DNA of 6,997 nucleotides from a virus (taxonomy: Duplodnaviria > Heunggongvirae > Uroviricota > Caudoviricetes). The notes below the pieces were generated by a model. That model was not told the DNA's origin. It searched no databases and worked only from the letters and a program-made list of their open reading frames with translations. Positions 1 to 6,997 of the stretch are shown here, piece by piece. The stretch spans positions 1 through 6,997 of the IMG/VR virus record IMGVR_UViG_2547132274_000005. The stretch is one strand, 5' to 3'. Within the stretch, counting starts at the first letter, position 1. Every line of letters starts with the position of its first letter. The translations under genes were made by a program, and so were the position numbers.

Positions 1-297
1 CCCGCCAGCAGTGCGATGCGCCAGCATTGCCGCGAATACGGAGGCCGGGGAGTCGTAATACGCCAGCAGTGATTCGCCGTGTGGTGTCAGGCAGTGCAAC
101 GCCAGCCCGTGTGGTGTGAAGTCCACGCGGTAGCAGTCGTCTACTGTGAAATAAAGGGTGTCCGCATTCTCCGGTTTTGTGGTGCGTGCTCTGTTGTCAC
201 GACCACGGATGTAGAGATCAAATAATCCCTGAAGAATGGGAGCCAGACGGGTGTCCTGTGTGCGCACCCATCTTGTGAAGTCATGAGCGTCAATCAT
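1..297 (-). CDS. Hypothetical protein, N-terminal 99 aa only (MIDAHDFTRWVRTQDTRLAPILQGLFDLYIRGRDNRARTTKPENADTLYF...); CDS continues beyond window start
   Basis: Minus-strand frame is open from the ATG at 297 to position 1 (99 codons, no stop). It is absent from the ORF track because no stop lies in the window. Weak SD-like AAGAGA sits about 9 nt upstream. Same frame and orientation as the upstream 76-aa gene. No family recognised. Confidence 0.5.
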   Translation of the reverse strand, partial: MIDAHDFTRWVRTQDTRLAPILQGLFDLYIRGRDNRARTTKPENADTLYFTVDDCYRVDFTPHGLALHCLTPHGESLLAYYDSPASVFAAMLAHRTAGG

Positions 298-369
298 GCT
301 GCAATTCTCTTTACTACAGATGTGCGAAGGCCTCCCGCCGCAAGGTGCAGGAAAGGCCCGGAACAGGAA

Positions 370-600
370 TTAATGGAGTTTGTTTTGCTGCTGGATGAGC
401 TGCTGAAGCTCGCGCAGATCATCCGCCAGATAGCTGAAAACAGAGGCGGAATAGCTGTTCGATAGTGCGTGACTGCGTTCATGCAGCATATTGATGTGCA
501 TGATTTGCGCGACACGGAATGCGCGGAAAAGTCTGCGGTTGATTTCAGTCTGGATGTGACGACGCTCCGCGATAGCGCGGTGCTGTTTGCGGTTTGCCAT
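370..600 (-). CDS. Small basic protein, 76 aa (MANRKQHRAIAERRHIQTEINRRL...), function unknown; possible nucleic-acid-binding regulator
   Basis: ATG at 600 is preceded by GAGG at about 7 nt spacing. The N-terminus is arginine/lysine-rich and the C-terminus looks heptad-like. Track ORF 370..600. Confidence 0.55.
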   Translation of the reverse strand: MANRKQHRAIAERRHIQTEINRRLFRAFRVAQIMHINMLHERSHALSNSYSASVFSYLADDLRELQQLIQQQNKLH

Positions 601-632
601 GGTGTGGCCTCTGTAGTTGCAAGTTTTGAAAA

Positions 633-667
633 CTCACCATCCAGAGGTTGCAATTCTGGGTGGTGAG
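633..667 (+). other. Stem-loop: 13-bp stem (one G.U pair on the + strand transcript) with 9-nt loop GGTTGCAAT
   Basis: 633-645 ctcaccatccaga pairs with 655-667 tctgggtggtgag. The single non-Watson-Crick position is a G.U pair on the + strand and an A/C mismatch on the minus strand, a weak hint that the + strand RNA is the one that folds. The loop carries the repeated motif. Confidence 0.45.
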
Positions 668-830
668 ACGTACGGGGTTGCAACCACCGGCAACTACAGA
701 AACCGGCCCGACCGAAGTCGGCCCCGTACGCCCCACCATAATTCGTGTGCGAAAAAGACGTGGCGATACGGTACGCACAAAAAAACCGCTGGCGCGGTTG
801 TGCGCTGTAGTTGTCAGCGGGGGTTGCAAT
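646..830. repeat. Three copies of motif GGTTGCAA(C/T)(C) with palindromic core TTGCAA: 646-654, 676-685 (perfect 10-bp palindrome GGTTGCAACC), 822-830; a fourth TTGCAA at 617-622
   Basis: Direct reading of the sequence. TTGCAA is not clustered like this anywhere else in the window. Copies 1 and 3 sit in 9-nt loops of local hairpins (the stem for copy 3 is only 4 bp, 818-821 with 831-834). Confidence 0.6.
779..798 (-). terminator. Putative rho-independent terminator for the leftward operon
   Basis: On the minus strand: ACCGC-GCCA-GCGGU hairpin (5-bp GC-rich stem) followed directly by UUUUUUU (+ strand A-run 779-785). It lies about 150 nt downstream of the stop of the last operon gene at 939. 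Confidence 0.45.
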
Positions 831-938
831 CCCGGCACTCGTTTTATGAGGTGCAGCGGAAATGTAACCTGACTGATTGCGGCATGGCAAGCGGTTTTTT
901 TGTGTATACATGGGTTAACCTTCTGGCAGTGACACGGA

Positions 939-1085
939 TTACACGGCGTACAGGCCGCGAGCGTGACACCACACTTCAAACATTCGTTTCACAATTTCGC
1001 GGCAGTAGTAGCCATCAACATCCCTTGTCAGGTCATAGCGATTGCCGTAACGCTGGCGCATCCATCGTTCAAAGGCTTTGTGCAT
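939..1085 (-). CDS. Small protein, 48 aa (MHKAFERWMRQRYGNRYDLTRDVDGYYCREIVKRMFEVWCHARGLYAV), function unknown
   Basis: ATG at 1085 is preceded by GAGGA at about 6 nt spacing. The track ORF 939..1139 begins at an upstream non-ATG codon; I prefer the ATG with the strong SD. Confidence 0.5.
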   Translation of the reverse strand: MHKAFERWMRQRYGNRYDLTRDVDGYYCREIVKRMFEVWCHARGLYAV

Positions 1086-1122
1086 GTTCTGTCCTCTGGC
1101 TTTTTGTTTATTCGTTATATTT

Positions 1123-1146
1123 CCGGCCAGCGGTTTCACTGGCCGG
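1123..1146. other. Intergenic GC-rich stem-loop (8-bp stem CCGGCCAG/CTGGCCGG, 8-nt loop) between the SPFH gene stop and the 48-aa gene
   Basis: Perfect inverted repeat read directly. No U-run follows on the minus-strand transcript, so it is probably not a terminator; it may be an RNA processing or stability element. Confidence 0.35.
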
Positions 1147-1152
1147 GTTGAA

Positions 1153-1977
1153 TCACTTCACCGGAACAAACGGAACAGCGGTATTACTGGTCATGTATTG
1201 CGGCAGCGTGCCGTTCCATTTGTTGATTGCTTCCAGCTCCATAACACCGGGGTTCTGGCGCAGAGCTTCACCGCGTAAACGAATAGCATCGGCTTCAGCC
1301 TGGGCTTTTGTGCGAATGGCATCAGCCTGTCCGGCTGCTTCTGCGCGTAGCATGTTGGCTTCTGCTTCGCGTTGCTTGACTTCCTGCTCGCGTTGCAGGG
1401 TTTTCTGGTTTGCCGTGACTTTGGCGTTAATGCTGTCGATAACGGTTGGCGGATATTCCGGTTTACCCACATAAGAGAGGCTCATGACCTGAATACCGAT
1501 GGGGGTCATCTCTTCCTGAATATCTTTAAGTGCTGAATCCAGCAGTTCAGACTTACCACCGTCGATAAACTTATCGGTGGTCATTTTGCTGGCCAGTCGG
1601 TTGAGTGCATCGGCGATCTTCTGGCGCAGGTCAGTGTCGGTAATGTCATCCACGCCTTTGCGGTAGGTCTGAAACACTGTGGTAACTTTGGATGGATCAA
1701 CCTTGTAAGCCACGCCGATGTGATAGCCGATGGTTGTGCCGTCACTCATCTGGAAGCTGAACGGCTCATCGTAGGTCTTCATTTGCTTGAAGGTGGGGAA
1801 GATGTAAACCTCTGTATTCCAGCCAGTCCAGTAGCGGCCAACGCCAACCACTTCGCCGACGCCTTTGTCGTCGCCCAGTTTGTTGACTTTGATGCCTACA
1901 TTGCCCGGCTCCACGCGGTCACAGCCAACCAGAAGTGTGGTCATCAGGAGAGGGATGAGTGGTAATAGTTTTTTCAT
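1153..1977 (-). CDS. SPFH/band-7 (stomatin-prohibitin-flotillin-HflK/C) domain lipoprotein, 274 aa; predicted inner-membrane lipoprotein
   Basis: N-terminal signal MKKLLPLIPLLMTTLLVGC with lipobox LVGC; the +2 residue after Cys is Asp, the E. coli inner-membrane retention signal. The body is a globular beta-rich domain followed by an Ala/Glu/Gln/Arg-rich coiled coil (QREQEVKQREAEANMLRAEAAGQADAIRTKAQAEADAIRLRGEAL), typical of SPFH proteins. The start ATG overlaps the stop of the upstream 70-aa gene (ATGA). Confidence 0.85.
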   Translation of the reverse strand: MKKLLPLIPLLMTTLLVGCDRVEPGNVGIKVNKLGDDKGVGEVVGVGRYWTGWNTEVYIFPTFKQMKTYDEPFSFQMSDGTTIGYHIGVAYKVDPSKVTTVFQTYRKGVDDITDTDLRQKIADALNRLASKMTTDKFIDGGKSELLDSALKDIQEEMTPIGIQVMSLSYVGKPEYPPTVIDSINAKVTANQKTLQREQEVKQREAEANMLRAEAAGQADAIRTKAQAEADAIRLRGEALRQNPGVMELEAINKWNGTLPQYMTSNTAVPFVPVK

Positions 1978-2186
1978 TGTTTGGTTTCCATAATTGCTTT
2001 GATGTAGTTACTGAAAAAGCGGACAACGCCCGCCGGGTACAGCAAGGCGACAAAAATGCCCAGCAATACCAGGAAGGAGCTGTCTGATGAAATCATTCTG
2101 GGAAGTAGCCCCACATACAGAATGAGAGAAACGAGGACGCATACCAGCGCCCACATGTATGCGCGAAACCAGGTCTTTTTGTTCAT
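1974..2186 (-). CDS. Small integral membrane protein, 70 aa, two predicted TM helices; partner of the SPFH lipoprotein (NfeD-like role possible)
   Basis: Two hydrophobic segments (WALVCVLVSLILYVGLL and FLVLLGIFVALLYPAGVV). Its stop overlaps the start of the SPFH gene. The SD upstream of the ATG at 2186 is weak. Confidence 0.65.
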   Translation of the reverse strand: MNKKTWFRAYMWALVCVLVSLILYVGLLPRMISSDSSFLVLLGIFVALLYPAGVVRFFSNYIKAIMETKQ

Positions 2187-2197
2187 ATCGCGGTTCT

Positions 2198-2497
2198 TTA
2201 CTGGTTAAGGAAAAAATCAAAAACCTTGTCGATGCGTTGCAGTAGCTCTCGTTGCATTGCTTCCGGCGTTTCTGGTTCACCAGGCGAACCCAGTGGTGCG
2301 CAGAAATCAGCGATTTCATGATGGAGCGTCAGGCGAATGGCTGGAGCCATGGTTCTGGCGTGCTCCAGCTCATCCAGCAGTGCCAGCACAGCGGACGGCG
2401 AGAGCATTGCGTGAAACGCTAGTAATTTTTGATGCGTTGCCATTCGTTGCGAGTCTGTCGCCAGTTCGCGTAGTTCCTGGTGGTTGATGGTGCTCAT
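2198..2497 (-). CDS. Hypothetical acidic protein, 99 aa
   Basis: Track ORF. The ATG at 2497 overlaps the stop of the upstream gene (ATGA coupling). No recognisable motif. Confidence 0.6.
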   Translation of the reverse strand: MSTINHQELRELATDSQRMATHQKLLAFHAMLSPSAVLALLDELEHARTMAPAIRLTLHHEIADFCAPLGSPGEPETPEAMQRELLQRIDKVFDFFLNQ

Positions 2498-2739
2498 GCT
2501 CTGGCTTCCTTCAGTAGTTGGTTAAACATGTTGGTAAGTGGATTGCCGCACCCGAACGGCATCGGGTTTATCTGGTAAGAAAAGCGACCGCCTGTTTTGC
2601 GCTCTTTTCTTATGACTGAACCGCTGCGCCAGAGTCGGCGTAACTCCGCATTAATGGCTGTGGTTGGGGTATTTAGCGCGGCAGCGATTTCTCCACCGCT
2701 ACAACCCGGATTGGCGGCGATGTAGTCCAGAATGGTCAT
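2494..2739 (-). CDS. Small winged-helix-like DNA-binding protein, 81 aa (putative transcriptional regulator)
   Basis: Pattern SGGEIAAALNTPTTAINAELRRLWRSGSVIRKERKTGGRFSYQI resembles helix-turn-helix plus beta-hairpin wing. The ATG at 2739 overlaps the stop of the upstream gene. Confidence 0.6.
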   Translation of the reverse strand: MTILDYIAANPGCSGGEIAAALNTPTTAINAELRRLWRSGSVIRKERKTGGRFSYQINPMPFGCGNPLTNMFNQLLKEARA

Positions 2740-2966
2740 CTTCGTGGCTCCTGTACCCTGGTCGTTAGTTGCCTGCTTTTTTTGCGCAGAACCTGTACAT
2801 ACATCACGTTAGTAGCCGTGTAATGCTTCCCGTTCTTAAGCCAGATGTGATGAATACCGGGCTCGCTGCGGGAGGGGGCTGTTCTGTCGTGATCGATCAG
2901 GCTGTCTTCCACGTCGTATTCAATGCCGCCCGATGTGAAATGTACGGTTAAGAATGATTTGATCAT
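2736..2966 (-). CDS. Hypothetical protein, 77 aa (MIKSFLTVHFTSGGIEYDVEDSLIDHDR...)
   Basis: ATG at 2966 is preceded by a strong SD AAGGAG at about 7 nt. The track ORF extends to 3068 in a frame that overlaps the 137-aa gene, so I trimmed it to the SD-supported ATG. Confidence 0.6.
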   Translation of the reverse strand: MIKSFLTVHFTSGGIEYDVEDSLIDHDRTAPSRSEPGIHHIWLKNGKHYTATNVMYVQVLRKKSRQLTTRVQEPRR

Positions 2967-2994
2967 CGCTGTGCTCCTTTGGTTTTTCATGGGG

Positions 2995-3408
2995 TTATGC
3001 GTTAAATGGGGAAGAGGTTGCCATGTCGATGAACGCAATCCGGTCGCGTCTGATGATGTGTACATCACTCAGCGGTTCGCTCTCATTTGCCGGAACCGCA
3101 GCAATCATGTAGCTCCCCTGCAGGTCTGCCAGGATGATGTATTCCTGTTGTGGGTTGTTGATGATAAAGACCCGTTTCCCAATGCTGGGGGAAGAAGTGT
3201 TGGTGCCGGCTAATTGAGCTTTGAGAGTGCTGATTTCGTTGTTCAGGCTTTCAATAAGTCCAGCAGCACTTGCGGTGACTTCTGCTATAGCCATTGAACG
3301 AACATAAAAGGGAATAAGCCCTTCTCTCAATGCCTGCCTGGCTAATGCATCTTCCATTTCTGATATTTTTTTCAGTTTGGTGATGGTGACTGTATCTTTA
3401 GCGTTCAT
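2995..3408 (-). CDS. Hypothetical protein, 137 aa; N-terminal helical/coiled-coil region and C-terminal beta-rich region
   Basis: ATG at 3408 is preceded by GAGGA at about 7 nt. Track ORF. Confidence 0.7.
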   Translation of the reverse strand: MNAKDTVTITKLKKISEMEDALARQALREGLIPFYVRSMAIAEVTASAAGLIESLNNEISTLKAQLAGTNTSSPSIGKRVFIINNPQQEYIILADLQGSYMIAAVPANESEPLSDVHIIRRDRIAFIDMATSSPFNA

Positions 3409-3499
3409 TTTGTATCCTCGTTATTTGTGTGTGCGAATACCTCCGCGAGTGCGGATTGTTTTCACGTTTTCTTATTTAATCTGGTGTTTAGTTGTGCTG

Positions 3500-3613
3500 T
3501 TATTCGTCGGGGAAATAACGTTCAATCTTTTTCACTGAATGAATAATTCGCACAATCCCAATGGCGCAGACCACCGAAATAATCAGAACAAGCCAGGACA
3601 TAAATATACTCAT
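3500..3613 (-). CDS. Small hydrophobic peptide, 37 aa (MSIFMSWLVLIISVVCAIGIVRIIHSVKKIERYFPDE), single predicted TM helix
   Basis: Not in the ORF track (under 60 aa). The ATG at 3613 overlaps the stop of the upstream 80-aa gene (ATGA) and is preceded by GGAGA at about 7 nt. The hydrophobic core is followed by a charged tail. Confidence 0.45.
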   Translation of the reverse strand: MSIFMSWLVLIISVVCAIGIVRIIHSVKKIERYFPDE

Positions 3614-3852
3614 GCGGCGTTCTCCAGTTCGTATGGTTCAATAATGCACCCTTTACACAAAAGCCCCACCACAGTTTCGAGTTCTTTATATGCGTAAAAA
3701 TCCCTTCGAATTTTGGCGTATTCCCGAAGGTGGCGAACCGATTCTGTCAGCGAGTTATGAGCTAGGGGAACAGCAGAATGACCGTACTCCGCTACATCAA
3801 AATGATATTGCTCAAGTGCTTTGTTAATGAGAGTTTTATATTCTTTGTCCAT
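3610..3852 (-). CDS. Hypothetical protein, 80 aa
   Basis: ATG at 3852 is preceded by AAAGGA at about 7 nt. It lies 11 nt downstream of the previous gene's stop. Confidence 0.65.
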   Translation of the reverse strand: MDKEYKTLINKALEQYHFDVAEYGHSAVPLAHNSLTESVRHLREYAKIRRDFYAYKELETVVGLLCKGCIIEPYELENAA

Positions 3853-3863
3853 CGCAATATCCT

Positions 3864-4142
3864 TTAATCTGCTTTCTGAATTTCAGCTTCTGAATCCATG
3901 CAGATAATTTCGATGTATGGTTCATCGCTATTAATCTGACGTGCCTTTTCAGCTTTGCTAATGATTTCTCGTACGGTCTGGTACGGAAGCTCCACAGTCA
4001 GGCGCGTACCGTTCAGATAAACGTAAGTAGCTGCGTTTTTTTCGGATGGAACAACTCCGTCAATGGCTGATGCGCGTAATAACAGTTCACCGCGAAAATC
4101 AATAAAACGGATAAATACACCTTGTGCATGCTCTTTGGTCAT
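3864..4142 (-). CDS. Hypothetical protein, 92 aa (MTKEHAQGVFIRFIDFRGELLLRASAIDG...)
   Basis: Internal ATG at 4142 is preceded by AGGTG at about 5 nt. The longer track ORF (to 4202) would overlap the upstream gene. Confidence 0.55.
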   Translation of the reverse strand: MTKEHAQGVFIRFIDFRGELLLRASAIDGVVPSEKNAATYVYLNGTRLTVELPYQTVREIISKAEKARQINSDEPYIEIICMDSEAEIQKAD

Positions 4143-4152
4143 AAAGCACCTG

Positions 4153-4503
4153 TTATAAATCAGTCTGTTTAATAAAACTTTGTCCGCGAAGCAGACGATC
4201 AACCGTGCGTAGTGCTTCGTATAATGTGAAATCCTGCCCGAACTGATTGTCGCCGCTGCTTAGTGCAAAAATGCGATTTCCGGTAAACGGATTGCGTGGG
4301 CATTTATGGACCACGATTCCAGCTTTCTCAATCAGCCAGGCATGCTCGCCGATTTGTTTTACTGGGTGGCCATCCGGCGTTGCGTGTGTTTCGCTCAGGC
4401 TGTAACGAGAGCTGCTGCGTGATGCACTGGTAGCGAAACGGTTAGCATGGCGTTCTGCCCCGTTGCGGAAGCGTTGCTGTGAAGAATTACGTCGTTGCTT
4501 CAT
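4153..4503 (-). CDS. Hypothetical basic protein, 116 aa; first gene of a promoter-proximal sub-operon (alternative start at 4551 would give 132 aa)
   Basis: ATG at 4503 is preceded by AGGA at about 9 nt; the ATG at 4551 has no SD. The N-terminus is Arg/Ser-rich. Confidence 0.5.
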   Translation of the reverse strand: MKQRRNSSQQRFRNGAERHANRFATSASRSSSRYSLSETHATPDGHPVKQIGEHAWLIEKAGIVVHKCPRNPFTGNRIFALSSGDNQFGQDFTLYEALRTVDRLLRGQSFIKQTDL

Positions 4504-4645
4504 ACAAAAATATCCTGCTGCTGTTGCGAATTTGTGCCGGGTTTTAGCCATGTCCGGCGCATGGTTTTGTGGTATTTTTCCGGCGCCCGCAGTCTTGAAG
4601 GGGCTGTAAAGGGCGCGTGTTTAACCAACCACAAATGAGGTTTAT

Positions 4646-4882
4646 ATGACTCAAAAATCAGTACCTGTTTATACGCCCAGTGAACTTGAGTGTCTGAGTG
4701 TTAATAATCATGCCTGCCTACGTTTCCATTATGATTTAGGTAACGATACTGAGTTACCTAAAGCTGGAGAGTTGTTTACGGCCTTAACTCTTGAGCAAGC
4801 AAAAGACCTTGTTGTTTTTCTTCAGCAATACATCTCAAAGGCTGAGATTACAGAATCCTTAAGCTCTAAATCACGTCATTGA
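4646..4882 (+). CDS. Hypothetical protein, 78 aa, encoded opposite to the surrounding operon (moron-like)
   Basis: ATG at 4646 is preceded by GAGG at 5 nt. The ORF is visibly AT-richer than its neighbours (by eye, not computed). Its 3' end overlaps the 3' end of the convergent 163-aa gene by 7 nt. Confidence 0.5.
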   Translation: MTQKSVPVYTPSELECLSVNNHACLRFHYDLGNDTELPKAGELFTALTLEQAKDLVVFLQQYISKAEITESLSSKSRH

Positions 4883-5367
4883 TTTATGAATCCGAGGAAC
4901 TTCCCTTTTTTGAGGTACCGCCGGTTCATTTTTACTGAGTCAACTTGAAGGTCTTGACTTTCTTTTATATCGGGGGTACAAGCCCCCGATATATTTCGTG
5001 GCTCAATTAGCATTGATTTGTTATTCAGAATCTGCCCGTAAAGTTCCAGTGCTTCTTCAGCAGGAAAACGGAGCATGACGCCGTATATTGGTTCTAAAAT
5101 CATTCCAATCGTCTCTTTGACGTCATCTCGACAAAAATGACCGTATTCATCGTCAGGATGCAGGGTGACACTTTTCAAATCTTCGCCATTCTGAAGCTTT
5201 GATTTAAATGCCATCAGGTCAGCGAACGTTCTGTGTAATTCGTGGTAGTCAACGCTGATTTCAATCTGCGGTTTGCCCGGAAAAACCAGCAAAAGCTTCT
5301 GGTGTGGTTTTTCGTTTTTCAGGGCTTCCAGTCGTTCCAGTAGTGCTTTATCTTCGTGGTTTGTCAT
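4876..5367 (-). CDS. Hypothetical acidic protein, 163 aa (181 aa if the TTG at 5421 is used)
   Basis: Track ORF 4876..5421 begins at TTG. The first in-frame ATG is at 5367, with only a weak GGGA SD. Second gene of the leftward operon after the Cox-like gene. Confidence 0.55.
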   Translation of the reverse strand: MTNHEDKALLERLEALKNEKPHQKLLLVFPGKPQIEISVDYHELHRTFADLMAFKSKLQNGEDLKSVTLHPDDEYGHFCRDDVKETIGMILEPIYGVMLRFPAEEALELYGQILNNKSMLIEPRNISGACTPDIKESQDLQVDSVKMNRRYLKKGKFLGFINQ

Positions 5368-5448
5368 TTCAAAGTCCCAGCCACAGCAACCATGCGTCTC
5401 GTTGTTCTTTCGGGCGTGCAAAGAATGCGTCGACGCTCTTGATGTTGC

Positions 5449-5976
5449 TCATGATAAATCGCTCTCGTGATCTCTGCGTCTTTCCAGTTTTGAGCTTCTA
5501 CCCATATAAACCCGTTTTCCGTTAACGGTCTGGCAGTCTTCTTTGTCGGCTGGAGAGAACTTTCTTTTCTGGCGGTCATACGTCCAGTAGCTTTTCCAGT
5601 TGTGCCATTCTGGTGGCTCAAGCTCTGGTAACTCGTCAGCAAGTGCGTCCCATTCTTTGGTGTTAAACCACCATACGCCGTCTGAATCTTCATCTTCCGG
5701 GTTTGTGCGCGTTTTGTGTCCCGGCATTTGACCGCGATTAAGGGCCATGCGCAGTGCGGCTTTTGTTAGCCCAATATATGCCGCGCCTCTTTCCAGAGAG
5801 CAAAGCCCGGCGATCGGACCATCCAGCCGTAAATTTGCTCCTTTTTTGTAAGAGCGCTTTTTCTTGTTTTCTTCGTGTTCGTCGTTGTTGGCGGCATCAA
5901 TGGATCCGCTGAGTGTGTCACTTTCCTGAAGTGGTTGGTGGTCAGATAACTCTTTATCGGCAATGAAGTCCCGCAT
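5449..5976 (-). CDS. Cox/excisionase-like DNA-binding protein, 175 aa, with N- and C-terminal extensions relative to a typical ~90-aa Cox
   Basis: ATG at 5976 is preceded by AAGAGGA at about 6 nt. The central segment LERGAAYIGLTKAALRMALNRGQMPGH...GVWWFNTKEW resembles the HTH and following aromatic motif of P2 Cox as I remember it. The gene is divergent from the C-like repressor, as in the P2 switch. The N-terminal ~55 aa are acidic and low-complexity. Confidence 0.5.
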   Translation of the reverse strand: MRDFIADKELSDHQPLQESDTLSGSIDAANNDEHEENKKKRSYKKGANLRLDGPIAGLCSLERGAAYIGLTKAALRMALNRGQMPGHKTRTNPEDEDSDGVWWFNTKEWDALADELPELEPPEWHNWKSYWTYDRQKRKFSPADKEDCQTVNGKRVYMGRSSKLERRRDHESDLS

Positions 5977-6079
5977 TTGTTATCCTCTTGTGTTGGTGCG
6001 CTTGTCGCGCCTTGTGATGGTTTGTTTTGGTTTGTTTACTTCACCTTGTGGTGAAGAATGAAGAGAGGATACTCATCGT
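5977..6079. promoter_or_regulatory. Divergent lysis/lysogeny switch region between the Cox-like and C-like genes, with direct repeats and one inverted repeat
   Basis: CTTGTG(N)TGG direct repeats at 5987, 6011 and 6045. Tandem GGTTTGTTT(T/A) at 6019-6038. Inverted repeat CTTCACC-ttgt-GGTGAAG at 6039-6056. Candidate rightward sigma70 promoter TTGTGA (6012-6017), 17-nt spacer, TTTACT (6035-6040). Confidence 0.45.
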
Positions 6080-6421
6080 ATGGTGAACATGTCAAGAGAT
6101 TATGCCAAAAAACTAAAGGCGATCAGAAATGCGGAAAAACTTACCCAATCTCAGTTTTCGCAAGTAACGGGGGTTTCTGTAGGGACTATAGGAAATTATG
6201 AGTCTGGATATAAACCTGCGCGAATTGAGGTTGTAGAAAAAGTAATCCAAGTCGAGCGATTCGAAAAATACACTATGTGGATACTTCACGACAAAACATT
6301 TCCCGCTGCCGGGCAGGTTGCTCCGGCTCTCTCTCTTGATGGCTCCATTCAGTCGGAGGACGATCAGGCTTCAATCGGCATTACCCAAAAATCACCCCGA
6401 TCAGGCCGCAATGTTGGCTGA
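6080..6421 (+). CDS. P2 C-type immunity repressor-like HTH (XRE family) protein, 113 aa
   Basis: HTH signature LTQSQFSQVTGVSVGTIGNYESG. Remembered similarity to P2 C (YESG, F.KYT.W, GQ.APAL). SD GAGAGGA lies upstream of the ATG at 6080. Positioned immediately upstream of int in the same orientation, as in P2. Confidence 0.75.
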   Translation: MVNMSRDYAKKLKAIRNAEKLTQSQFSQVTGVSVGTIGNYESGYKPARIEVVEKVIQVERFEKYTMWILHDKTFPAAGQVAPALSLDGSIQSEDDQASIGITQKSPRSGRNVG

Positions 6422-6490
6422 CTTTACACATTGAGCGAATTACATCTCGCAAGGAGTGTTTAGTTAATTTATCCGTTGGAGGGGCTAATC

Positions 6491-6997
6491 ATGTCGATTA
6501 AGCAACTCAAAGACGGACGTTATCGGGTTGATGTCAGACCTCAGGGGGCGGAAGGAAAGCGGATTCGGAAAACCTTTACCCTGAAATCAAAGGCTCAGGA
6601 GTTTGAGAAGTATGTGTTACAGAACTTCCATGACAAGCCATGGCAGGCTAAGCCAGCTGATCAGCGGCGATTATCAGAGCTGCTTGATGCGTGGTGGATG
6701 CTTGACGGGCGTAATCAGGCTTACGGGGATAGCTACAGGGTCAGGCTAGGGAAGGTTATTCGTGAAATGGGAGATCCTCGCGCCAGTCAGATGACGCGAA
6801 AATTTATGCTTGAATATCGGTCAGAGAAATTACAGGCCGGATTAATGCCGTCCAGTATTAATCGTGATTTATGCGTTCTGTCTACCATGTTCACGGTGCT
6901 GATTGAAGCTGAGGTCTTTCACAACGCGAACCCTGTACGCGGTATACGTAAACTGAAAGTTCAGAACACAGAGATGGCCTTTCTTTCTGATGATGAG
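6491..6997 (+). CDS. int: Tyrosine recombinase/integrase, P2 Int family, N-terminal 169 aa; CDS continues beyond window end
   Basis: ATG at 6491 is preceded by GGAGG at 8 nt. The frame is open to the window end. The N-terminus MSIKQLKDGRYRVDVRPQG...GKRIRKTF...PSSINRDL...MFTVLIEAE closely parallels P2 integrase as remembered. It is absent from the ORF track because no stop lies in the window. Confidence 0.9.
   Translation, partial: MSIKQLKDGRYRVDVRPQGAEGKRIRKTFTLKSKAQEFEKYVLQNFHDKPWQAKPADQRRLSELLDAWWMLDGRNQAYGDSYRVRLGKVIREMGDPRASQMTRKFMLEYRSEKLQAGLMPSSINRDLCVLSTMFTVLIEAEVFHNANPVRGIRKLKVQNTEMAFLSDDE

Follow-up and report, generated by a model that had tools for sequence, protein, structure and literature searches.

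A two-gene module of a two-helix membrane protein and an SPFH lipoprotein carried as accessory cargo by P88-like and unrelated phages

We analyzed a 6,997-nucleotide (nt) stretch of phage DNA (positions 1 to 6,997 of IMG/VR virus record IMGVR_UViG_2547132274_000005; hereafter, the window) with a focus on two adjacent minus-strand genes, which encode a two-helix membrane protein of 70 amino acids (aa) and an SPFH/Band-7 lipoprotein of 274 aa. The two genes form one accessory envelope module, and the best reading of it, put forward tentatively, is an early-expressed membrane scaffold for host takeover. What is directly supported is the domain identity of the larger protein, its lipobox, the conserved pairing and natural fusions of the two proteins, the accessory and mobile status of the pair, and its position in the operon. 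SPFH proteins (HflK/C, prohibitins, stomatins and flotillins) are universal membrane scaffolds with poorly defined functions in bacteria, and the phage copies make up one exported, predicted lipid-anchored, prohibitin/HflK-like family with a non-NfeD partner of its own. The pair comprises the following features (positions are those of the window):

1974..2186, minus strand: two-helix membrane protein, 70 aa (reading frame, hydrophobicity, match to phrog_1130)
1974..1977, minus strand: ATGA overlap of the 70-aa stop codon with the SPFH start codon (sequence)
1153..1977, minus strand: SPFH/Band-7 (prohibitin/HflK-like) lipoprotein precursor, 274 aa (reading frame, Pfam, PHROGs)
1921..1977, minus strand: putative signal peptide of a lipoprotein, residues 1-19, with lipobox LVGC at its end (sequence pattern)
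1357..1917, minus strand: SPFH/Band_7 domain, residues 21-207 (Pfam envelope; predicted local distance difference test score, pLDDT, 80-94 there)
1255..1449, minus strand: long C-terminal alpha-helix, residues 177-241, rich in Ala, Glu and Gln (DSSP on the AlphaFold model)

An initial annotation of the window, made from the letters alone, had placed both open reading frames (ORFs) between 1153 and 2186 and had called the larger product an SPFH lipoprotein with lipobox LVGC and Asp at +2; each of these points was borne out, and both ORFs are on the minus strand. A profile search matched residues 21-207 to Pfam PF01145 (Band_7/SPFH) with an E-value of 5.5e-31 and a score of 108.4 bits against a cut-off of 23.6 bits, and the PHROGs database returned phrog_200, named 'lipoprotein', at 1.5e-111. 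The N-terminus reads MKKLLPLIPLLMTTLLVGC followed by DR, with Cys19 closing the lipobox. The lipoprotein signal was called by sequence pattern (MKK...LLVGC; lipobox [LVI][ASTVI][GAS]C), and Cys19 was invariant in distant homologues. In the AlphaFold model, an SPFH beta/alpha domain is followed by a 65-residue helix (mean pLDDT 74.5, above 85 in the core). Foldseek matched the model to SPFH structures at E-values from 1e-13 to 1e-8; the best matches were HflK/C (7vhq), prohibitin (8rrh) and erlin (9o9u), each with an E-value near 1e-13 and an alignment that took in the helix and almost all of the protein, and stomatin, flotillin and QmcA were also found. The closest solved chains by sequence were HflK (E 1e-4) and prohibitin-2, and distant members of the family are named 'prohibitin family protein' by the National Center for Biotechnology Information (NCBI). 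HflK/C, prohibitins and erlins all lie on the non-cytoplasmic face of a membrane and all build cages. The 65-residue helix (177-241) aligned to the coiled-coil parts of HflK and prohibitin-2 and is, by analogy, the element that forms the ring or cage wall in solved SPFH assemblies. Many GenBank records of Stx2-converting phages and of phiP27 annotate their homologues as 'serine protease' or 'putative serine protease'; we rejected this label because no protease family was detected with Pfam or NCBIfam, and it is probably a misannotation propagated from the 'protease modulator' naming of HflK/C.

The 70-aa protein proved to be a two-helix membrane protein, as first proposed. Its hydrophobic segments lie at about residues 9-30 and 36-58, and basic residues flank both ends, which suggests an N-in/C-in hairpin with a periplasmic loop of roughly 10 residues (LLPRMISSDSS). 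A motif within this loop, P-x-[LMF]-[IVL]-S, is kept in divergent partners. The only family found for the protein was phrog_1130, 'membrane protein' (2e-21, PHROGs). No Pfam family scored above its cut-off; the initial annotation had named NfeD as the usual companion of SPFH proteins, and NfeD (PF01957) was unmatched at E-values up to 0.1. NfeD homology was therefore rejected, as 70 aa also leave no room for an OB fold. A sub-threshold Pfam match to a cytochrome oxidase subunit was dismissed as chance. A word-seeded homologue search with the 70-aa protein gave 15 matches, close relatives only, and divergent partners were identified by position and topology instead of sequence search.

A length of about 70 aa, two helices and a charged C-terminus also resemble class II holins, and SPFH scaffolds are generally known to stabilise membranes. 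The pair might then control lysis timing, the small protein acting as a holin- or antiholin-like element and the SPFH scaffold restraining premature permeabilisation. We regard this as very improbable: neither Pfam nor PHROGs gave a holin family match, the pair lies in early or middle regions and not in lysis cassettes in every context inspected, and the two-helix family co-occurs with SPFH genes in bacterial chromosomes that have no lysis genes there.

The partnership of the two-helix protein and the SPFH lipoprotein is, on comparative sequence evidence, real, and three independent lines support it: close loci, distant loci and gene fusions. Among 84 close loci, 82 had an overlapping two-helix ORF upstream of the SPFH gene, the overlap being 4, 16 or 20 nt. 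These loci, which are not independent of one another, were 80 IMG/VR contigs (at least 93% identity) together with P88, phiP27, Erwinia phage S6 and RCS47. Of the two exceptions, one lay at a contig end and the other (L025) possibly carries a frameshift. The small ORF is unannotated in the phiP27 and RCS47 records. The proposed translational coupling through ATGA stood in part: the overlap is present and an overlap is kept in the 82 loci, but 4-nt overlaps also join neighbouring genes of the window (2494-2497 and 2736-2739), so the ATGA overlap alone is not diagnostic of this pair.

For the distant survey, one genome per species was scanned with a six-sequence alignment, which gave 371 loci, and the best 80 were analyzed. 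These came from Enterobacterales, Dyella and other Rhodanobacteraceae, Sutterella, Leptospira and Bacteroidota, among others. An upstream two-helix ORF bearing the loop motif was present in 54 of these 80 loci and a fusion of the two genes in 5 (59/80 in total). As a control, the motif-based two-helix detector was applied to 768 windows elsewhere in the same loci and fired in none of them, compared with 41 of 64 at the true position.

Natural fusions were found in at least 15 of the 150 best representatives (clustered at 50% identity) and in ten further homologues. In the fusions, which include P0139, P0145, P0150, P0152, P0154, P0158, P0160, P0161, P0179 and P0184, one polypeptide comprises the two-helix hairpin, then a third hydrophobic segment that closes with a lipobox-like Cys, and then the SPFH domain. 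Some of the fusions have no internal Met. A structural model of a fusion showed three N-terminal helices followed by the SPFH domain. This arrangement fits an N-in, SPFH-out topology and, in the model, attaches the SPFH domain to the inner membrane. The fusions also raise the question of whether LspA cleaves at the internal lipobox. One protein, P0143, is arranged the other way round: the SPFH lipoprotein comes first and a C-terminal two-helix segment follows; this order would invert the topology of the loop, or it may be a gene-calling artefact.

The mature SPFH protein of the window was 100% identical to that of P88, 98% to that of RCS47 and 97% to that of phiP27. The corresponding values for the two-helix partner were 91%, 49% and 23%; the partner evolves much faster than the SPFH scaffold. 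These values also bear on the idea that the pair is a selectively neutral passenger or is decaying in this prophage. The pair is dispensable and relatives lack it, as such a passenger would be; however, both ORFs are intact in the window and in 82 of the 84 related loci, unrelated phages have mature SPFH sequences that are 97-100% conserved, and 92 of the 274 alignment columns are invariant across 28 homologues. We consider neutrality or decay highly improbable. In phage PVP-SE1, a 54-aa soluble ORF (gp116) lies between the motif-bearing two-helix gene gp115 and the SPFH lipoprotein gene gp117 (L170, 2091-3325), and two more small membrane proteins follow gp117.

By nucleotide and annotation comparison, the window belongs to a P88-like phage (Peduoviridae, Xuanwuvirus) whose nearest relative is phage P88. 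P88 carries the equivalent pair as gp11 ('membrane protein') and gp12 ('lipoprotein'). The gene order at the integrase end is that of P2, namely int, a C-like helix-turn-helix (HTH) repressor, a Pe-like promoter and cox, and the window has the early-operon layout of the P2 family (Peduoviridae) to which the initial annotation had assigned it. The features that define this end are:

6491-6997, plus strand: Int_N (integrase), profile match
6080-6421, plus strand: HTH repressor, divergent from cox, profile match
6066..6095, minus strand: sigma-70-like site TTGACA-18-TATCCT upstream of cox, the best of the region and the likely early promoter (Pe)
5449-5976, minus strand: cox (Phage_Cox), 27.2 bits, slightly below the 27.5-bit cut-off

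After cox, tightly packed small genes (DUF4761, DUF4754, a MarR-type winged HTH protein and an Ead/Ea22-like protein) lead to the pair. The same annotation had put the pair at the end of this operon, where replication genes would be expected, and neither part of that placement held. Downstream of the pair, the window continues with a strong hairpin that has no U tract, a small ORF, isrK-like and C4 RNAs, a derepression gene and a last ORF that is cut by the edge of the window. In P88, the pair is followed by the derepression gene, a 366-nt ORF and a gpA-type replication endonuclease. The pair is thus mid-operon in the Cox-side early operon, and the replication genes are not displaced. The gap between the upstream gene and the pair is only 11 nt, and a crude consensus scan found no promoter-like site between the Pe-like site and the pair except a 9/12 match at 3330-3301. 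Since the gap is so short and no promoter-like site lies in front of the pair, it is most simply transcribed from the repressor-controlled early promoter. Expression in a lysogen, as for classic prophage defence or exclusion genes, appears unlikely from this early-promoter position and from the slot that the pair occupies in P1-like phages, which in canonical P1 belongs to the C1-controlled ban operon.

The pair is accessory and not a core gene of P88-like phages, in agreement with the suggestion that this position holds variable cargo. Among close relatives, P88_4B11 and vB_EcoM-705R2 have a different 618-nt gene in the slot, and in phage 520873 there is nothing. SPFH homologues were present in 385 of 50,697 phage records, and the listed examples among these 385 were mostly large myoviruses and N4-like or LUZ24-like podoviruses. 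Carriers include P88-like phages, lambdoid and Stx2 phages, P1-like phage-plasmids and Burkholderia phage phiE125. They also include N4-like phages (S6, KpCHEMY26, Moo19 and Piffle), rV5/PVP-SE1-like myoviruses, LUZ24-like Pseudomonas podoviruses, phiCbK, crAss-like phages and Lak megaphages, groups that are known as virulent. Contigs of roughly 100-110 kb, possibly plasmids or phage-plasmids, carry the SPFH gene as well. The pair itself was found in several unrelated settings. In phiP27 and Stx2 lambdoid phages, it adjoins xis/int, and an unannotated 62-aa two-helix ORF overlaps the SPFH gene by ATGA. In the N4-like Erwinia phage S6, the pair is gp044/gp045, and it is also present in PVP-SE1 and phiE125. 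In the P1-like RCS47, it lies at 3977-5021 of the locus and replaces tciA-tciB-tciC (P1 locus 14234-14930), in a slot between upl and the tRNA/ban genes that in canonical P1 is inside the C1-controlled ban operon. In Escherichia coli, 535 of 5,426 complete genomes (about 10%) had a match, and 199 of the 617 places were on plasmids. The whole family numbers 2,887 cluster representatives at E-values up to 1e-3 and 216 at E-values up to 1e-30.

Nucleotide similarity to Stx2 phages spans 1186-1926 and begins exactly at the lipobox Cys codon, and the signal peptide and the two-helix partner differ strongly between P2-like, lambdoid and P1-like copies. This suggests a recombination boundary at the lipobox codon, with the region that encodes the mature domain behaving as a recombining cassette. 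The pair also occurs outside phages. In Dyella, it is a chromosomal locus that is syntenic across species (Dyella jiangningensis, L121, 2902-9146, and syntenic loci L104-L127), and its neighbours are a BlaR1-type M56 peptidase, two hemerythrin genes and ribonucleotide reductase. Extra copies of the pair lie elsewhere in some Dyella genomes (L136, L137 and L148). One fused copy sits among ordinary chromosomal genes in a non-phage context. The Dyella locus with its housekeeping neighbours points to a general membrane function that phages have borrowed, rather than to a dedicated defence device.

In the scaffold reading that we favour, the 274-aa product would be exported and would receive at Cys19 a lipid that tethers it in the periplasm, where its SPFH domain would sit on the membrane and its long helix would build a homo-oligomeric ring or cage, as in HflK/C, prohibitins and erlins. 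The 70-aa hairpin would lie in the inner membrane with its conserved loop facing the periplasm, and would serve as adaptor or anchor of the SPFH scaffold, that is, as a functional analogue of NfeD and not a homologue. Transcription of the module would accompany that of the early (Cox-side) operon when the phage infects or is induced, and would be absent from the lysogen. During lytic development, the module would stabilise or fence off part of the inner membrane or a host membrane complex; given the analogy with HflK/C and prohibitin, the FtsH protease would be the leading candidate target. The module is optional cargo that passes between unrelated phages, and a bacterial chromosomal module with this architecture may be its source. 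If modulation of FtsH or of membrane integrity were the function, the pair would clearly exemplify how a phage takes over membrane proteostasis.

Several points weigh against this reading. The oligomeric cage, the inner-membrane location, the timing of expression and the target are all predicted rather than observed. The partner is only 23-49% identical in contexts where the mature SPFH domain is nearly identical, so that any specific interface would have to depend on the short conserved loop; otherwise, the partner may have its role in biogenesis and not in function. In TL (gp11) and phiCbK (gp181), a different small membrane protein lies upstream of the SPFH homologue. The promoter scan, being a crude consensus search, leaves room for an internal promoter. 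Asp at +2 is kept only in E. coli-type copies (C-D-R in the window and in all 82 close copies surveyed), and PVP-SE1 has C-E-R and Erwinia phage S6 has C-Y-E. The initial annotation had taken Asp at +2 to imply retention in the inner membrane; this agrees with the E. coli-type copies and not with the Glu of PVP-SE1 or the Tyr of S6, so that localisation judged from this residue is ambiguous and not secure. Finally, the literature searched held no functional study of a phage SPFH protein, and a paper on an N4-like phage calls the reason for its SPFH gene unclear.

The non-Asp +2 residue of several homologues also bears on the view that the SPFH protein is a surface or virulence lipoprotein of lysogenic conversion, which would travel to the outer membrane or to vesicles and target an animal host, while playing no part in the phage cycle. 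Pasteurella multocida PM0222 (Pmorf0222), a prophage-island HflK/C-like protein of similar size (25-35 kDa), was the only phage-associated SPFH protein with experimental data that we found. It is present in outer-membrane vesicles and activates TLR1/2, and its deletion attenuates virulence in mice (PMC9872710). Stx2 phages carry the gene as well. PM0222 is a putative homologue of this SPFH family by its description; it differs in having a phenotype of virulence and TLR1/2 signalling and no described partner gene. Phages of environmental bacteria, large myoviruses and N4-like podoviruses commonly carry the SPFH family, and in these, conversion makes no sense. With the position in a repressed early operon, and with a conserved inner-membrane partner and fusions that tie the protein to the inner membrane, we judge conversion quite improbable.

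The initial annotation had proposed the pair as a superinfection-exclusion or abortive-infection device. In such a device, the SPFH scaffold and the two-helix protein would alter the inner-membrane site of DNA entry for later phages or trigger membrane failure on infection. Exclusion would be a new mechanistic class, and we consider it possible, though on the unlikely side. An accessory, highly mobile two-gene cassette with a predicted envelope location and variable slots has the profile of such a device, and early expression with many carriers of non-temperate type would fit a block of secondary infection during lytic growth. In P1-like phages, the pair replaces tciABC, to which the P1 record assigns 'tellurite or colicin resistance or inhibition of cell division' by TerB homology. 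Both are small envelope-related accessory cassettes that take the same slot, tciABC in canonical P1 and the pair in RCS47-type phages; their protein families are unrelated, and the tci function is itself inferred by homology. T4 offers a similar case in Imm, a small two-helix inner-membrane protein, and Sp, which is periplasmic; both are products of early genes of a virulent phage and act in superinfection exclusion. The analogy is purely speculative, as no sequence or fold relation to the pair was found, imm and sp are not adjacent, and neither has an SPFH domain. The initial annotation knew of no characterised defence system with this architecture, and the pair is indeed not a catalogued one: PADLOC-DB v2 gave no family for either protein at E-values up to 0.1 (eight operon proteins scanned). 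The literature searched linked no SPFH protein to phage resistance, and PHROGs and Pfam revealed no relation to known exclusion proteins. Against exclusion there are, furthermore, the probable silence of the pair in a lysogen of this phage and the occurrence of the same architecture outside phages, in Dyella as a chromosomal locus that keeps its synteny beside housekeeping genes, and in other non-phage contexts elsewhere. A related view, in which the pair is an unrecognised inner-membrane gatekeeper whose periplasmic SPFH cage covers DNA-entry or otherwise vulnerable sites, and gives early superinfection exclusion or protection from lysis from without, seems to us unlikely. We are as doubtful of its corollary, that such a function would be common to temperate P2-like, lambdoid/Stx and P1-like phages and to N4-like, rV5-like and LUZ24-like phages. 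The pair is a tractable, widespread module and no demonstrated defence system. As a compact, clonable two-gene system, it would allow the function of an SPFH scaffold to be read as a phage phenotype, for example in burst size, lysis timing, exclusion or the stability of FtsH substrates. Two candidates from the literature proved irrelevant: the Gifsy defence protein GiPD474 is an unrelated ATPase, and 'band 7' in the phiCbK paper means a gel band.

Among known systems, HflK/HflC-FtsH of E. coli (SPFH3) is one of the closest to the membrane scaffold proposed here. Of the solved structures, it matched best in both sequence and fold; it has an SPFH domain and a long helix on the periplasmic side of the inner membrane, and it has a historic link to phages through the turnover of lambda CII. 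The window protein is nevertheless not an HflK/C orthologue. Its scores were far under the NCBIfam equivalog cut-offs (hflC, 25.7 against 134.4 bits; hflK, 23.5 against 159.4 bits), the window has one SPFH ORF and not a K/C pair, and the protein has a predicted lipid anchor in place of the N-terminal transmembrane helix of HflK/C and a separate two-helix partner. SPFH-NfeD operons, such as QmcA-YbbJ of E. coli (8z5g), share the two-gene layout of an SPFH protein with a small membrane partner and the occurrence of partner-SPFH fusions, and QmcA was among the fold matches. They differ in that the window partner has no NfeD domain and in gene order and motif. QmcA also faces the cytoplasm, whereas the SPFH protein of the window is predicted to be exported. 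The prokaryotic prohibitins (SPFH4) are a candidate group for the family, in that prohibitin-2 was a top sequence and fold match and NCBI names distant members as prohibitins. SPFH4 proteins were predicted to face the periplasm and to take part in the quality control of membrane proteins, and no bacterial prohibitin-type member had been studied as of that report (Hinderhofer et al. 2009, PMC2636767). No partner gene was reported for SPFH4 there (PMC2636767), in contrast to the conserved two-helix partner of the phage family. The P88 genes were already annotated as 'lipoprotein' and 'membrane protein', homologues elsewhere as 'SPFH domain-containing protein', and phage SPFH genes had been noticed before with no explanation. 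What appears to be new is the conserved non-NfeD two-helix partner, its fusions with the SPFH protein, and the cassette-like mobility across phage families.

The remaining features of the window flank the module on its downstream side and between cox and DUF4761:

1123..1146, minus strand: G+C-rich hairpin, 10 bp, with no U tract, a few bases past the SPFH stop codon (-22.5 kcal/mol, z -6.0, 0/200 shuffles as stable)
939-1139, minus strand: small ORF after the SPFH gene, match to phrog_3871 (3.7e-31)
779-854, minus strand: isrK-like small RNA, 53 bits
656-743, minus strand: C4 antisense RNA, 82 bits
370-600, minus strand: 'Derepression' family gene, 76 aa, profile match
4876-5421, minus strand: ORF with no Pfam family, 181 aa
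4646-4882, plus strand: opposite-strand ORF within the early operon, 78 aa

The hairpin was rejected as a canonical intrinsic terminator because no U run follows it, and it may be an mRNA-stabilising or cassette-boundary element. The small ORF at 939-1139 has a probable internal ATG start that would shorten it to about 48 aa; in the P88 record, an opposite-strand ORF (963-1151, plus strand; gp13) is annotated instead. The stretch homologous to this phrog_3871 ORF adjoins xis in phiP27, and the ORF may travel with the cassette. The C4 and isrK-like RNAs lie directly upstream of the derepression gene, and together the three apparently form, within a P2-like phage, an antisense-RNA immunity element of P1 type that controls an antirepressor. 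P88_4B11 and 705R2 lack everything from the two-helix gene through the derepression gene. A search for tRNA genes in the window found none. Between cox and DUF4761, the region 4646-5421 is unlike that of P88 and may represent a second variable slot.

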